Shown one piece after another: positions 1-6,000 of a stretch of DNA of 25,194 nucleotides. The stretch is taken from the IMG/VR virus record IMGVR_UViG_2684622543_000001; one strand, written 5' to 3'. Positions within the stretch are counted from its first letter, which is position 1; the number at the start of each line of letters is the position of its first letter. The DNA is from a virus. Lineage: Duplodnaviria > Heunggongvirae > Uroviricota > Caudoviricetes. Made by a program: the position numbers.

Positions 1-3000
1 GAACAGGAGGGACAGCTGATAGAAACAGAAGCCACTGGAGCACCTCAAAAACACCATCATACACTAAATCAGTAAGTTGGCAGCATCACCAGCCTTCTTG
101 AGGCTACCACCTGTTTTCAGGTGTCATTCAGACGTGATTTGCCCCAGATTGGGAAAGCACGCTTTTTTCTCAGCTATCGTCCTCTTATTTTGCCGTTACA
201 TTTCTTTTTGCATTCTAATGATTAATTTACAATAATAATATCGGTAATTATTGAGTAATAATAAATTAATTATTGCAAATGTAATTTAATTCCATCTTCG
301 CGTTATATTCCAATCTTTAATCTCCGCATGGAACAAGTTGCATGCGTGACTATATTAAGACGACTTATAACCACCAAAACATTTGCTTTGCAAGCAAAAA
401 CAGTGACCATTGACTCTAAGAAAATTCCGATCTATTGTTAGGGTCATCAAAGTTACTTAACAGTATTCCGAAATGAAAATACAAAGCAAGCTAATTGTCT
501 TATTAANNNNNNNNNNNNNNNNNNNNNNNNNNNNNNNNNNNNNNNNNNNNNNNNNNNNNNNNNNNNNNNNNNNNNNNNNNNNNNNNNNNNNNNNNNNNNN
601 NNNNNNNNNNNNNNNNNNNNNNNNNNNNNNNNNNNNNNNNNNNNNNNNNNNNNNNNNNNNNNNNNNNNNNNNNNNNNNNNNNNNNNNNNNNNNNNNNNNN
701 NNNNNNNNNNNNNNNNNNNNNNNNNNNNNNNNNNNNNNNNNNNNNNNNNNNNNNNNTTATTCTTAATCCAAGAACATACTCCCTACCTATAGCAAAATCA
801 CTTTTTTAACAAAAGAATAACGTATTTAGGTAATCATTACGAATTTACCCTATAGGTGCTACTGGCCATTCAATATCCGGTGCAGTTGATGTATCAACAC
901 GGTTCAGCAACACCCGATACTTTTTCCAAGCTTCCAGCAACAAGGTTTCTTTCTCCGTTGCGATCTCCAGATCCACAGCATCCTGAAGCGGCGCTATATG
1001 CTCACTGGCTACCTGCATCAGGCTGTTTTTTGTTTCTTCCGCCTCCCGGATCCGGAACAGTTTTTCTGCTTCCGTATCCTTCACCCAGGCTGTGCCGTTC
1101 CACTTCTGAAACTCCCCTTCCGGGGATAACCAGGTGACATTTTCCGGTAATGAGCCGAGTTCAGAAATAAATAACGCGTCGCCGGAAGCCACGTCATAAA
1201 CCGTTTTACCCCGATGATCTTCAACGAGATGCCACGATGACTCATCACTGTTGAAAACAGCCACGAAACCAGCCGGAATATCTGGCGGTGCAATATCGGT
1301 ACTGTTTGCAGGCAGACCTGTATGAGGCGGAATATATGCGTCACCTTCACCAATAAATTCATTAGTTCCGGCCAGCAGGTTATAAATTTTTATGGTCCGT
1401 GCTTGTTCACTCATTCTGAATGCCATTATGCGAGCCTCACAATATAGTTAAATGCGATGTTTTTGACGGTGTTTTCCGCGTTACCAGCAGCGTTAACGGT
1501 GATGGTGTGTCCATGTGAACCAATCGCAACAGAGTGCGTATGAGCACCAATACCGACAGTATGCGCGTGTGCACCCGCAGATGCTGCTGTGCCGGACAGT
1601 GAGTGTGTATGGTTTCCTTCTGAAGATGATTTACCTACCCATTGGGAGGTGCCACTGGTTAATGAGCCACTGATACCAACCTGATTAGTCCCGCTAACTT
1701 GAGTACTCCCTGCCGGAAACATTCCAGTAGGTTGACTCCCGCTATTCGTTCTGGGCCCAGTCTGACTATGTTGGTGGGCCCCAGCTGAACTTGTAGAGCC
1801 GCTCAGACTGTGCGTATGCGCCCCGGTGTTATTCGTGGATTTAGTGCCGTAATCAAACGACGATGTGGTTTTCGTCCCCAAATCCGTACTGGATGCGCTG
1901 GCGCTGTGGGTGTGCGATTTANNNNNNNNNNNNNNNNNNNNNNNNNNNNNNNNNNNNNNNNNNNNNNNNNNNNNNNNNNNNNNNNNNNNNNNNNNNNNNN
2001 NNNNNNNNNNNNNNNNNNNNNNNNNNNNNNNNNNNNNNNNNNNNNNNNNNNNNNNNNNNNNNNNNNNNNNNNNNNNNNNNNNNNNNNNNNNNNNNNNNNN
2101 NNNNNNNNNNNNNNNNNNNNNNNNNNNNNNNNNNNNNNNNNNNNNNNNNNNNNCCGAGGTGTAAAGCTGCGCCCACGGCGACCAGTTTGCGTCGGTCGTA
2201 TCCCGTCGTGAACGAATAAATGCCGGAGCATGAGCACCGCTTGTACCACTCCAGCCGATGAGTAACTCACCTTCGCCAACGGCTGTCATCCCTTTCAGGT
2301 GAATGATATTTCCATACGCTGTTGGATATCCGTTGTTATACACCTCGTATAACTCAAGACCTGCTGCCCCCTGCGTATTGTCTGTCAGCGCGGCTACCCG
2401 ACCTTTTGAAGCCAGATTAACTGATGATACTGCTGTTCCACCTGACGGTAGCGCCCCGATCTCTGATGCCGTTGGCTTATTTCTGGAGTTATAGTCCCTT
2501 CGCCAGCCAGGTGAATAATCTGTTCCGTGATTAATATAGGTAAACTGGGCGTTGGTTGTTCCGCCACCGCTGGATGTGGTCGGAGTGGTAATGCGGATCG
2601 TCATCGCTGACTTTATCCCCATTACTTCAATGACAGCTCCGGCGAGATGAATATTACCGCAGCCAGTATCAGTAATGATTTTATTATTGCCATAAGACCA
2701 GGAACCCTTGCACATCCAGTATGGATGGTTAAATGCTCCCTGAGAATCCAGCCACTCGATAAACTGTGCAGTCGTCCAGTTTCCTGTTGTTGTGCTTACT
2801 GACCCACCGAAGGCACGGCAGGCACCAATATTTTTCGTAAAGGTGTCTTTGCCAGGGATATCCGCACCGTTCTGATCTTTCTGCAGACGTTTCTCAGCAT
2901 TGTCATTGGCTGCTTTTACTGCCTTTGGCGTTGCCGCCAGCGTTTCAGACGTGCTGTTGGTCGCGCTGCTTAGCTGGATTATCCCTTTCTGTGCTGTCGT

Positions 3001-6000
3001 TGCATCCTGTGCGGTGTATTTCCCGTTAGCCAGGTCATACGCGGCCTTAACGGCTTTTGGTGTTGCCGCCAGTGACTCGGAAGTGCTGTTAGTCGCACTA
3101 CTGAGCTGTACTATCCCCTTTTTCGTCGTGCTCGCATCCTCAAGCGCCACGGCGGATGCAATATCCTCTGCCCGTTTTGCCGCTGTCTCAGCGCGCGTTG
3201 CTGCAGATTCCGCCGTACTTTTGCTCTGAGCTGCTGCCGTCGCACTACCAGCAGCCTCTGTCGCCTTCGTGGATGCCGTCGTGGCGCTGCCCTTCGCTGC
3301 TGACGCCTGTCTGGTCGCCTCATCTTTTGAAGCAGACGCCGATGATGCCGATGACGCCGCCGAACTGGCGGACGATGCGGCAGCCGTTTTTGAGGATTCT
3401 GCACGGGTTTCCGACGCTTTCGCGTTCGTTTCGGATGTCTTCGCTGCGGAAGCTGACCTCGCTGCTGCCGTGGCCTGCTCAGTGGCTTCGCCAGCCTTCG
3501 TTGTGGCTGTTGAAGCGGATGATGCGGCGCTTTCTGCCGATTTTCCGGCGGCGGTGGCACTGGCTGAGGCCTGCCCGGCACTTGTTGACGCGGCGCTGGC
3601 AGACGACGCAGCCGCTGTTTTTGAGCCTGCCGCAGCTGAGGCACTCTGTCCCGCTGCCGTTTCAGAAGACCTGGCGTTCGTCTCGGACGTTTTGGCCGCC
3701 TTCGCAGAATTTGCAGCCGCCGTCGCCGAGGAAGCTGCGCTACTGGCGCTTGATGATGCGTTCGTTTCTGATGATTTTGCCGCCTCTTTTGAAGCCGACG
3801 CATCCCGGGCTGAGGTGGCAGCTTCTGACGCTTTCGTGGTCGCGGTGGATGCAGAAGTGGCTGCTGATTGTTGTGACGCTGCCGCATTCGTTTCTAACGT
3901 TTTCGCCGCACCGGCACTGGTAGCCGCCGCGCTTTTTGAGGACTCTGCAGCGGCAGCACTTTTTGAGGCTTCAGTGGCCTTTGTTGATGCCGTTCCTGCG
4001 CTGGAAGACGCTGACTGAGCCGACGAAGCGGCCTGTCCGGCTGACGTGCTGGCTGCACGTGCTGAATCTGCAGCATCAGTCGCATGGGTTGCCGCCTCAC
4101 GGGCTGATGTGCTGGCATCGCTGGCTGATTTCTTCGCGGCTGCCGTGTTCTGTGCCACCGCGGACGCGTTACGCGCCACCTCTTCCACCATCAGCTCAAA
4201 ACGGCGCAGTGCCTCCGGACGGGCATCATCCTCCGTCATGGCACCGAGAAAATCATTCAGCGTACCGGGTCGGGAATCTTCATACACGGTGATGGTCCCG
4301 GCATGTGACGGCGGGAATCCTTCCACCAACAGAATAACGCTGTACTGACCGTACTCAACGTCCATGCTGTAACGCCCGGCTTCATCCGGATTTTCTGAGG
4401 CCAGCGTGTTCACCACCACCGTGGTGCTGTTACGTTTTGCTTTCAGCTGGATTGTGCAGTTCTGTACCGGTTTTCCTGTGCCGTCTTTCAGTACACCTGA
4501 AATCTTTACTGCCATATTCACCCCACAAAAAAGCCCGCCTGAACCGGCGGGCTGTCATAACACTGTGTTACCTGGCTAATCAGAATTTATAACCGACACC
4601 CACGATGAAACCGTCAGTGCGCCAGAGACGTGTTGCTGTGGCGACCGTCATCACTTCCGGTCAGCACATCGTGCGTTTTCCCCTTATTGTCAGTTACGCG
4701 GATATAATCCCCGGAAAAAGTCGACACACGGCTGTAAGCCACACCCGCCATCGCATACGCGCTGAACCATTCATTCACGCGCACAGACGGCCCCGCCATC
4801 ACGCTGAACCAGCGGTTACGCACGGAATCTTCATGCCAGCGGGTATCGCTGTAACGGGTCAGCTGGCGATTCTTGTCTCCTGCATAGCTGAATGACGTCA
4901 CCAGCCCCAGCGTATCCGTAAACTCATAACGGTATTTCACGTTAATCCCGTTCAGATCATCACTGCCGGGAACGTTGGTCCGGGCATGAAGATACCCCGC
5001 GCTCAGCGTGGACTGATGTTCAGACGCCCATGCAGGCGCACCGGATACGGCCAGGCAAATGGCTGCGGACAAAATGGCTGCACAAACTTTACGCATAATT
5101 ACCTCTCGCTTTTCTGCAATAAAAAAGGCGTCATTCCTGACGCCATTTATTGGGGTTATAAATATTTCAACGAATACTGATGCCGGAAGCCGCTTTTTTG
5201 GTCACAATCACCGTACAGTCGGTGATATTGCCTGCCCCCTGATTGCCTTTCTGGAAAATCTTAAACTCCAGAGTGACGCTACCACCACCACTAGGCATAT
5301 CAATAACTGCACTGTAACTACCGGGAATGGCACCTTTAGTTTCTCTGGATGCGATTAATACGCCGTTTTTGCGAACTTCAAAACCATAACCCGTGTATCG
5401 CGTGCCTCCTGGGTTATTTCCGCTCCCCGGATCGTCATACGCTATACCGTTAAAAATAATGGGCGGAATAATAATCTGGCGGTCAAAGTTATGATCATCG
5501 CTTATGGTGACTGTAACCGTCCCGTTTGGTGTTTCCGTGTTACCCCACGTACCAGCCTGTTTCGGAAATGATTTGGATACAGCTTTAACGAAGTCACCTC
5601 TGACCTGAGTCGCCTCCAGCATGCCCTTAATCGTACAGTTTTCATTTACCGTGACATTGTTGAGCGTCCCGGCGTTCGCATTCACACTGCCACTGATATC
5701 CGCATTTTTAGCGGTCAGCTTTCCGTCCGGAGTCAGGGAAAATGCCGATGGATTTCCACCGCTGGTAATGGTGGGGGCCGTCAGGCGTTTCAGGAACACG
5801 TCGTTCATGAATATCTGATCGCCCTGACCAACAAACATCGGTTTTGTGTTGCCATTCGCAGGATTAACCATCGCAATCCTGTCCGCCGCCAGCAGCACCT
5901 GACTCTGCATGCCGTCAGGGGTGTTCTCAATACCGGCACCAATACCCGCGATATAAAGGCGTCCGTCCTGCATCTGCTGCAGCTTCACAGCCCACATGCT

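Follow-up and report, generated by a model that had tools for sequence, protein, structure and literature searches.

A modular side tail fibre gene (stf) and its chaperone gene tfa in a lambda-like prophage

We have analysed a 25,194-nt stretch of DNA from a virus of the Caudoviricetes (IMG/VR record IMGVR_UViG_2684622543_000001), referred to here as the window, and found in it a side tail fibre gene of ordinary type (stf) and the chaperone gene tfa of a lambda-like prophage. The stf coding sequence lies on the minus strand at 1426..4515, with its ATG at 4515-4513 and its TAA at 1428-1426 in the ORF list and translation, and counts 1029 codons when read through a run of masked bases (N-run). 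It is followed by tfa (845..1426, minus strand), which encodes a tail fibre assembly chaperone of 193 aa (Pfam Caudo_TAP, E = 4.6e-44), and preceded by the ORFs of J (5167-8664) and of a truncated lom (4614-5096), both on the minus strand. This late gene order, J-lom-stf-tfa, all on the minus strand, is the same in lambda and relatives, and together with the Pfam domains it bears out the identity of stf and then tfa given in the original prediction. All features listed there were found at their coordinates, with the minus strand having gone unstated. The Pfam search proposed there as a check matched Phage_fiber_2 twice, PF08400, Caudo_TAP and Phage_fiber PF03335. In the closest phages, PhiR68_2 and mEp460, the annotation reads side tail fiber Stf or tail fiber. 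The gene is already known, as near-identical copies are present in public databases, and its modules also occur in phages lambda, Mu and T4.

The first 94 residues of Stf (4234..4515, minus strand) form the tail-attachment, collar-forming domain, recognised by PF08400 (phage_tail_N, residues 1-134, E = 1.4e-71) and by the solved lambda Stf N-terminus 9e7m (E = 1.4e-51), whose first residues, MAVKISG, fit the ATG start of stf. Residues 1-104 are identical at 96 of 104 positions to the reconstructed Ur-lambda Stf (lambda orf401 + orf314 without the frameshift), in agreement with the predicted lambda-like N-terminus. The shaft follows at residues 105-459 (3139..4203, minus strand) and consists of ~51 uninterrupted heptads of the form xAxxSAx. 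Identity at lag 7 over these 355 residues was 0.41, versus 0.21 in shuffles (z = 10.5), and heptad position 2 is Ala in 47/51 heptads. On the one hand, the Ala/Ser/Thr composition that had been described (38% Ala, 24% Ser and 12% Thr over residues 118-455) and the SETNA-type units (four (S/L)ETNA units, at residues 207, 249, 277 and 361) hold. On the other hand, what had been called low complexity is really a precise heptad repeat. This periodicity points to a trimeric alpha-helical coiled coil that would be ~53 nm long, and the counterpart segment 102-393 of Ur-lambda Stf has been modelled as a proximal coiled coil (PMC12617516). Within the shaft, the 105 residues 304-408 (3292..3606, minus strand), exactly 15 heptads, fall on an alignment gap in Ur-lambda Stf. 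The shaft also aligns with itself without gaps over 104 aa at an offset of 112 residues, with roughly half of the positions identical, and we consider the expansion to be an old internal duplication of residues 192-295. The fibre had been predicted to be expanded, and it is larger than Ur-lambda Stf (1029 or 1027 vs 774 aa), with a shaft growth of exactly 15 heptads that would lengthen the shaft ~16 nm beyond that of lambda.

Next to the shaft, Pfam places two Phage_fiber_2 domains (PF03406, ~42-aa repeats, E = 6e-37) as direct repeats at residues 462-502 (3010..3132, minus strand) and 506-546 (2878..3000, minus strand). Each contains a copy of a 27-residue motif (3040-3120 and 2908-2988), the copies being 132 nt (44 codons) apart and 74% identical in DNA across 107 nt, which confirms the tandem duplication reported at 2908-3120. 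The second Phage_fiber_2 copy is missing in relative L005, and the reconstructed Ur-lambda Stf has a single motif copy. The repeats lead into a central block of ~240 aa with two globular knob domains (residues 547-787; 2155..2877, minus strand), which stands in the alignment in place of lambda Stf residues ~386-528. Residues 539-723 match the phage Mu tail fibre S/S' chimera 8ju3 (E = 1.4e-85), with ~70% identity of the fibre repeat and next knob to 8ju3 residues 178-362; Mu S alone (5YVQ, residues 97-175) is matched only by the fibre-repeat segment. The AlphaFold2 model is a monomer with a mean pLDDT of 61 in which the knob domains alone are confident, reaching 75-90 over residues ~575-675 and 63-81 over 718-785. 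With the modelled central block, Foldseek returned 8ju3 (E = 1e-21) and, more weakly, the T4 gp34 C-terminal region and the R2 pyocin fibre (E = 1e-3 to 1e-2), and a Pfam Gp34_trimer match stays below threshold. The central block is thus a homologue of phage Mu S' and is not new. The claim of a mosaic fibre with a distinct central region stands for the mosaic structure and for the difference from lambda, but not for the novelty of the region. The Mu distal tip is absent from Stf, where a probable collar and a gp37-type needle take its place.

The homology of the central block to the Mu S/S' chimera, and a Pin-type serine recombinase gene located directly downstream of tfa in relatives L001, L002 and L005, would fit a reading in which stf-tfa is part of a host-range switch of the invertible Gin/Pin type, as in Mu S/S' or e14/Rac. 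However, in the window an AT-rich segment and an IS1 end occupy the place downstream of tfa, and neither an invertase gene nor a second inverted tail-fibre tip/tfa set was found in the window. Also, the invertase crossover core AAACCNNGGTTT (<=1 mismatch) has no match in or near stf-tfa, and its two matches elsewhere in the window equal the chance rate. We therefore regard such a switch as very improbable.

Beyond the central block, 232 nt (1922..2153, minus strand, codons 788-865), collar-coding in relatives, are N, and therefore the continuous stf frame that had been predicted, in contrast to the interrupted frame of lambda PaPa, cannot be read from the window. The lengths of the N-runs in the window differ from those of the corresponding stretches in near-identical relatives in three of three cases (232 vs 226, 81 vs 245 and 250 vs 245 nt), so that frame continuity across the N-run is no evidence for an open gene. 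Considering also that the adjoining lom is already broken, stf could be a pseudogene here, with a stop, frameshift or rearrangement concealed among the masked bases and a single frame that owes its appearance to the chance length of the N-run. We consider this improbable, because three IMG/VR contigs (L015, L011 and L139), which share 99.9-100% identity with the window in those flanks of the N-run that were compared, all carry an open in-frame 226-nt stretch at this site. L015 shows 100% identity to the window over the 4,024 nt around the N-run, and L011 and L139 are in agreement. The three contigs encode a near-identical 76-residue stretch ending in QEQDGI, and in every relative examined the same 76 codons separate two shared anchors, LYTS (or what corresponds to it in lambda) and KSHTHS. 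Since relatives with identical flanks have 226 nt at the N-run, Stf would have 1027 codons, which is probably its true length. In PhiR68_2 Stf, Pfam finds a Collar domain (PF07484) at this position, and the masked stretch probably encodes a gp37-type collar domain. The intactness of stf thus appears to be supported by the relatives, not by the window itself.

The C-terminal residues 866-1029 (1429..1920, minus strand) resemble the needle and tip of T4 gp37. The gp37 tip structure 2xgf matches them with E = 7.7e-42, and Pfam Phage_fiber PF03335 covers four stretches (E = 4e-7). Seven HxH motifs (residues 868, 900, 914, 969, 983, 992 and 1001) account for every one of the 14 His in the last 164 residues, versus a mean of 1.1 motifs in shuffles (P(>=7) ~1e-5). 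The repeated H-x-H motifs predicted near the tip are accordingly present, and 7/7 align one-to-one with those of T4 gp37. The conserved C-terminal strand of gp37-type tips (28 residues) was also found in alignments, and the last 40 residues of T4 gp37 (2XGF) are near-identical to those of the window Stf, whereas the tip loops are unrelated in sequence and the remaining Stf is unrelated to gp37. In T4 gp37, seven iron atoms are coordinated within the needle, and the tip, where the receptor-contact residues 933-953 sit, binds OmpC and LPS (PMC6957217). By analogy, the HxH motifs of Stf may bind metal.

Allele comparison revealed a variable tip cassette between HxH 3 and HxH 4, at residues ~917-968 (1612..1767, minus strand). 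Its DNA identity is only 49-56% to the alleles of L001, L004, L006 and lambda, but 100% to L005, and it has no close characterised relative. This tip was found in only 11/5,426 complete E. coli genomes, where the best matches span ~2,952 nt, the one-repeat length, and we consider the cassette to be a rare allele. As read from the 2xgf alignment, the gp37 receptor-contact residues appear to correspond to the variable cassette, and by analogy with gp37 the cassette may set the receptor. The predicted lambda-like C-terminus can accordingly be kept for the frame and the final ~45 residues, which are near-identical to the reconstructed Ur-lambda Stf, but not for the receptor-binding cassette, which is another allele.

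The stf stop and the tfa start share the sequence TAATG (1424..1428, minus strand), which we read at 1428-1424 as predicted, and a GAGG precedes the tfa ATG by 8 nt. Translational coupling of stf and tfa, as had been suggested, is plausible from this arrangement. In the annotations of lambda and five relatives, stf ends at the very coordinate where tfa starts; as the overlap is common to lambda and every relative examined, it is no special feature of this locus. The encoded Tfa is identical to lambda Tfa at 179/193 positions (93%) and would act as a chaperone, a part played in T4 by gp38/gp57A.

Considering these similarities, one could ask whether the gene is simply Ur-lambda Stf, the unframeshifted lambda gene. 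Both proteins have the N-terminal collar domain (92% identical), the heptad shaft (84% over the shared part), the fibre repeat, probably the collar, the HxH needle and the C-terminal ~45 residues, and both loci share Tfa, the TAATG overlap and the position of stf after lom. However, this identity was refuted by alignment, which showed 105 extra shaft residues, a second fibre repeat and a different tip cassette in the window. Ur-lambda Stf has 15 fewer heptads, one fibre repeat, eight HxH motifs and another tip, and a ~140-aa hinge and distal-shaft segment (~386-528) where the window carries the Mu-S'-like knobs. This block has no lambda counterpart, DNA identity there is at background (45-64%), and a megablast comparison with lambda aligns only 54% of the query. 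The probability of this reading is close to zero, and the prediction that the gene differs from Ur-lambda Stf was upheld. Engineered fusion points for chimeric lambda STFs, R393 and S528, coincide with the natural swap points (PMC11338833).

The Stf architecture of PhiR68_2 (PV340576.1), mEp460_ev081 (LR597641.1) and E. coli prophages such as SE11 and ST70 is alike from end to end, with the anchor, the 51-heptad shaft, two fibre repeats, the Mu-S'-like block, the collar (probable in the window) and a seven-HxH needle, in the same J-lom-stf-tfa context. These proteins have 1023-1024 aa, and their body is 99-100% DNA-identical to the window. They differ in the tip cassette between HxH 3 and 4, as given above, and in a tfa of another subtype (92-96% DNA identity). 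The Z1323HEC0016/MP1 prophage type (L005) also has the Mu-S'-like block and matches the window at 100% in the tip, in the needle and at the beginning of tfa; it differs in having a single Phage_fiber_2 repeat, 983 aa and a shaft that is 92-97% identical, and the Z1323HEC0016 tfa is frameshifted, unlike that of the window. In sliding windows, DNA identity was 99-100% to L001/L004/L006 over nt 826-2390 of stf and 96-100% to L005 from the N-run to the end of tfa. On this pattern we consider stf to be a recombinant, with a body of the PhiR68_2/SE11 type and a tip and tfa of the Z1323HEC0016 type, whose crossover appears to lie in or beside the conserved collar-coding region. Matches covering >=80% of stf are present in 629/5,426 complete E. 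coli genomes, and the isolated phages PhiR68_2, SPF_0923 and mEp460 match it at 96.8-97.8%; the significance that had been attached to the gene was overstated in view of these numbers.

Taken together, we consider with a probability of about 85% that this is the stf-tfa module of a lambda-like prophage, encoding a modular, recombinant, homotrimeric side tail fibre. In Ur-lambda, the trimeric side fibre comprises an N-terminal collar along with a proximal coiled coil, a hinge and a receptor-binding domain that resembles gp37 and binds OmpC, and it gives fast reversible adsorption via OmpC (PMC12617516). In the window Stf, residues 1-94 would join other copies in a collar fixing the fibres to the tail, as in the solved Ur-lambda structure with its 12 copies and four fibres, and the ~51 heptads would form the long Ala/Ser coiled-coil shaft. 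The two Phage_fiber_2 repeats and the Mu-S'-type two-knob block would make up the mid-fibre, replacing the lambda hinge and distal shaft, and the gp37-type collar would be located in the masked stretch. From there, the chain may extend outwards and return within a needle that seven metal (iron) sites hold together, with HxH motifs of all three chains contributing to each site. Between HxH 3 and 4, a short tip rich in loops would touch the receptor, leading to reversible primary adsorption, and irreversible binding would be left to J. Tfa, translated from the overlapping start, would aid the folding of the C-terminal part.

The fibre had been predicted to be functional; given the decay next to stf, it might never become part of a viable virion. 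The lom gene is a pseudogene with an 83-nt frameshifting deletion, and this deletion is common to 10 IMG/VR contigs, indicating that a damaged lineage persists; an IS1 end lies at window positions 1-90, ~750 nt beyond tfa. Accordingly, the ORF could be intact but the prophage defective, with stf in practice a reservoir from which lambdoid phages that enter the cell take the cassette via homologous recombination, rather than the fibre of its own virion. The clear recombinant structure of stf would fit, and in experiments Rac and Qin, both defective prophages, have supplied lambda with stf-tfa DNA (PMC3945230). However, lom does not belong to the virion genes, full-length ORFs are seen for the remaining late genes from Nu1 to J, an apparent break in V falls on an N-run of unreliable length, and the early region of the prophage falls outside the window. 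We regard the reservoir role as possible but the less probable one. Between lom and stf, a scan found a terminator-like hairpin with a T-run (4527..4553, minus strand), which lies directly upstream of the stf ribosome-binding site and is kept in lambda and PhiR68_2 in the alignment.

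The side tail fibre gene, stf, lies on the minus strand from its ATG at 4515-4513 to its TAA at 1428-1426 and comprises 1029 codons as counted, N-run included. An alternative GTG start is found two codons upstream in the ORF listing, and the peptide MAVKISG, which the ATG start gives, also opens the solved lambda Stf N-terminus (9e7m). The frame passes through a run of 232 N at 1922-2153 (minus strand), corresponding to codons 788-865. All three N-runs of the window differ in length from the same stretches of near-identical relatives: the run in stf has 232 nt versus 226 nt, the run in gene V (14635-14715) has 81 nt versus 245 nt, and the run downstream of tfa (507-756) has 250 nt versus 245 nt. 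They behave like gap estimates and not like length-true masks, and frames across them are untrustworthy. Therefore, the frame shared by the two flanks of the run in stf is no evidence of an intact gene.

We located IMG/VR contigs carrying the window allele via the deletion junction in the neighbouring gene lom and the tip cassette of stf. Among these, contig L015 shows 100% identity to the window over 2,947 nt on one side of the run in stf and over 1,077 nt on the other, contig L011 is 99.9% and 100% identical on the two sides, and contig L139 is identical across the 619 nt compared. In these three contigs, the masked position is occupied by one open 226-nt stretch, represented by 76 residues in translation, and Stf is uninterrupted at 1027 aa. 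Because contigs with identical flanks are open at the masked stretch, we consider that the window stf is very probably intact (probability about 0.9), as judged from these relatives. V, a major tail gene (14475-15081, minus strand), reads in two frames around its 81-nt run, and our first reading was a frameshifted V with 164 nt missing. The short spacing of the V flanks was found in none of the IMG/VR contigs, the normal 245 nt being present in at least 120, and the other two N-runs are also off-length. Accordingly, the gap length probably accounts for the break in V, and a true 164-nt deletion is less favoured.

The original prediction described a TAATG overlap between the stf stop and the tfa start, and tfa (845-1426, minus strand; 193 aa; Pfam Caudo_TAP, E = 4.6e-44) does begin within the stf stop codon, at 1428-1424 on the same strand, with a GAGG 8 nt upstream of its ATG. 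The overlap is common to lambda and every relative compared, and translational coupling of tfa to stf is plausible. The tfa of the Z1323HEC0016-type relative (L005) is annotated as frameshifted.

For comparison, Ur-lambda Stf (774 aa), the unframeshifted lambda side fibre, was rebuilt by joining lambda orf401 and orf314 at the known frameshift, and the alignment showed that the window protein is a different protein. On the one hand, the expected lambda-like N-terminus is present: 96 of the 104 anchor residues are identical to Ur-lambda, Pfam phage_tail_N covers residues 1-134 (E = 1.4e-71), and residues 1-94 match the lambda Stf N-terminal domain solved on the tail (9e7m, E = 1.4e-51 in the PDB sequence search); in the shared shaft, 211 of 251 residues are identical. 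On the other hand, Ur-lambda lacks 105 shaft residues of the window protein (304-408, exactly 15 heptads) as well as its second fibre repeat, a block of about 240 residues of Mu-S' type stands in place of lambda residues ~386-528, and lambda has eight HxH motifs as well as another tip. The edges of the replaced lambda block coincide with R393 and S528, which are fusion points in functional chimeric lambda STFs (PMC11338833). The identity and architecture first proposed for Stf hold, whereas the shaft and the central region had been described imprecisely, the former being built of heptads and the latter being the Mu-S'-type block.

The shaft had been regarded as a low-complexity region with SETNA-type units. 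Its composition (38% Ala, 24% Ser and 12% Thr over residues 118-455) and four (S/L)ETNA units are in line with this, but mere low complexity does not describe residues 105-459, which form 51 xAxxSAx heptads in a register that is never broken. Heptad position 2 is Ala in 47/51, position 5 is Ser in 36/51 and position 6 is Ala in 35/50, and identity at lag 7 reaches 0.41 versus 0.21 ± 0.02 in shuffled sequences (z = 10.5). The extra residues 304-408 form an ungapped alignment with residues 192-295, shifted by 16 heptads and with about half of the positions identical. Assuming a coiled-coil rise of 0.1485 nm per residue, the shaft would be ~53 nm long in the window protein versus ~37 nm in lambda.

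The anticipated duplication of a 27-residue fibre motif was located exactly at 3040-3120 and 2908-2988, and Pfam identifies two Phage_fiber_2 repeats (E = 6e-37). The copies lie 132 nt apart and share 25 of 27 residues, whereas their DNA is only 74% identical over 107 nt, which marks the duplication as old and conserved at the protein level. With copies this dissimilar in DNA, the 132-nt duplication was not detected by Tandem Repeats Finder; a separate repeat search detected it. Collar and Phage_fiber gave no Pfam hit on full-length Stf and were recovered by scanning pieces and a close relative; the Phage Tail Collar domain (PF07484) occurs in close relatives at the stretch that is masked in the window. 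Membership in Gp34_trimer is not claimed, the score of 18.5 bits falling under the Pfam threshold of 27. Hits in PHROGs are scattered among dozens of 'tail fiber' families, in keeping with a mosaic protein.

In the central region, residues 539-723 match a phage Mu tail fibre S/S' chimera (8ju3, E = 1.4e-85 in the PDB sequence search), and the match to Mu S itself (5yvq) is confined to the fibre-repeat segment at residues 490-568. An AlphaFold2 monomer model of residues 456-787, computed with 34 homologues as input, had a mean pLDDT of 61 and was confident in two globular parts only (pLDDT 75-90 and 63-81); it is poor outside these knobs, and the fibre-repeat region and linkers yield no claim. 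By Foldseek, the modelled block appears similar to 8ju3 (E = 1e-21), and weaker similarity is predicted to the T4 gp34 C-terminal region and the R2 pyocin fibre (E = 1e-3 to 1e-2). A 355-aa protein from a 1.9-kb contig (P0008) joins Stf N-terminal residue ~78 straight to the Mu-S'-like block. It has neither shaft nor fibre repeats, and its sequence breaks off within the collar in another frame, so that it represents a deletion variant or else a misassembly of the contig.

Residues 835-1029 match the T4 gp37 receptor-binding tip (2xgf, E = 7.7e-42 in the PDB sequence search). The HxH motifs noticed near the tip number seven among the last 164 residues and contain all 14 His found there; shuffles average 1.1 motifs, with P(>=7) ~1e-5. 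All seven align with the seven of gp37 (2xgf), and the 14-residue Phage_fiber repeat of Pfam matches four times in the same 164 residues.

Sliding-window DNA identity was used to map the mosaic. From nt ~826 to the mask, stf is 99-100% identical to PhiR68_2, E. coli ST70 and SE11, and from the mask to its end it matches the Z1323HEC0016 type at 100%, with 96-100% identity across tfa. This switch at the mask shows that stf is a recombinant, with its crossover within the conserved collar-coding region or next to it. In the tip cassette, DNA identity to the other alleles is just 49-56%. Six relatives include at least four tip alleles, and Tfa is 93-95% identical throughout. Experiments have demonstrated that lambda can recombine homologously at stf-tfa with resident defective prophages (PMC3945230). 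A reading of stf-tfa as an invertible segment was rejected.

In the Ur-lambda model, built from cryo-EM, cryo-ET and AlphaFold3, the V-M junction is surrounded by a collar of twelve Stf N-terminal domains, from which four trimeric fibres exit via flexible linkers (PMC12617516). Along each fibre, a proximal coiled coil is followed by a hinge, a distal part and a receptor-binding domain that resembles gp37 and binds OmpC, and the fibres make adsorption 10-30 fold faster and are not essential (PMC12617516). The window Stf appears to have every sequence element required for such a mechanism, and by analogy it would work like the Ur-lambda fibre, from which it differs in its longer shaft and in the Mu-type knobs placed mid-fibre. 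The T4 gp37 needle coordinates seven iron atoms along its length, and tip residues 933-953 contact LPS and OmpC (PMC6957217). In the 2xgf alignment, the variable cassette of the window Stf, bounded by HxH 3 and HxH 4, lies at the equivalent tip portion of the gp37 chain. Since Ur-lambda fibres possibly also recognise the O16 O-antigen (PMC11990801), a glycan target of the window Stf would be as plausible as a porin. We consider it improbable that the rare tip (residues ~917-968) binds a receptor other than OmpC/K-12 LPS while the Mu-S'-type knobs serve as a second glycan-binding site, making the fibre bivalent. OmpC and K-12 LPS are the targets known for lambda and T4, and such a bivalent fibre can be likened to the lateral fibres with two RBDs described for some BASEL phages.

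In terms of prevalence, megablast matches to stf with at least 80% coverage were found in 629 of 5,426 complete E. coli genomes. PhiR68_2, SPF_0923 and mEp460_ev081 match stf at 96.8-97.8%, their annotation being side tail fiber or tail fiber, and all readable parts are found in identical or nearly identical form on several public viral contigs. Stf is a routine mosaic member of the already known lambda Stf family, and the discovery value is small, given that the family is well known and its public copies are already annotated. The tip allele is present in 11 IMG/VR contigs and in 11 of the 5,426 genomes, where the best matches span ~2,952 nt, as expected of a one-repeat gene; the exact two-repeat body with the window tip was found in none of these complete E. 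coli genomes. Neither the tip cassette nor the lom deletion junction was found in the species-representative genome set. We see a modest value in a clean natural example of side fibres rebuilt from cassettes, in which the shaft changes by whole heptads, fibre-repeat copies number one or two, the Mu-type block sits between positions that engineers use for lambda Stf fusions, and the tip is exchanged between conserved HxH-coding flanks. If its receptor is determined, the rare tip allele could usefully enlarge the set of receptor-binding modules with which lambda particles are engineered.

Caution would be appropriate as to function of the window Stf, given the broken lom, the IS1 end and a prophage early region that falls outside the window. 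In lom (4580-5096, minus strand), two CTGGCG microhomologies bound a deletion of 83 nt (junction ~4620-4626) that shifts the frame, so that the ORF ends after 160 aa and matches Pfam Ail_Lom over positions 1-159 of 199; lom is a pseudogene, and its deletion junction also occurs in ten IMG/VR contigs. The terminal 90 nt of IS1 occupy 1-90, and the ~750 nt between IS1 and tfa (91-844) have 32.5% G+C; the same IS1/AT-rich/tfa arrangement is present in E. coli PI7 at 99.4% identity. A 97-aa ORF at 473-766 exists solely through N, the PI7 frame stopping after 33 codons. In three close relatives, a Pin-type serine recombinase gene lies directly downstream of tfa (5330-5920 in both PhiR68_2 and a further close relative, L002; 5118-5708 in L005), and in the window this position holds the AT-rich segment and IS1.

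The remainder of the window reads as a lambda-type late operon, Nu1 to J, with J and lom upstream of stf on the same strand. Terminator-like GC-rich hairpins followed by T-runs lie on the minus strand in the lom-stf gap (4532-4553), where the element is conserved in lambda and PhiR68_2, and in the J-lom gap (5127-5144). J (5167-8664, minus strand) encodes 1165 aa and is likewise annotated with 3498 nt in PhiR68_2, ST70 and SE11, versus 1132 aa (3399 nt) in lambda. Because of this difference in length, the receptor-binding end of the J central fibre may also be a non-lambda allele.
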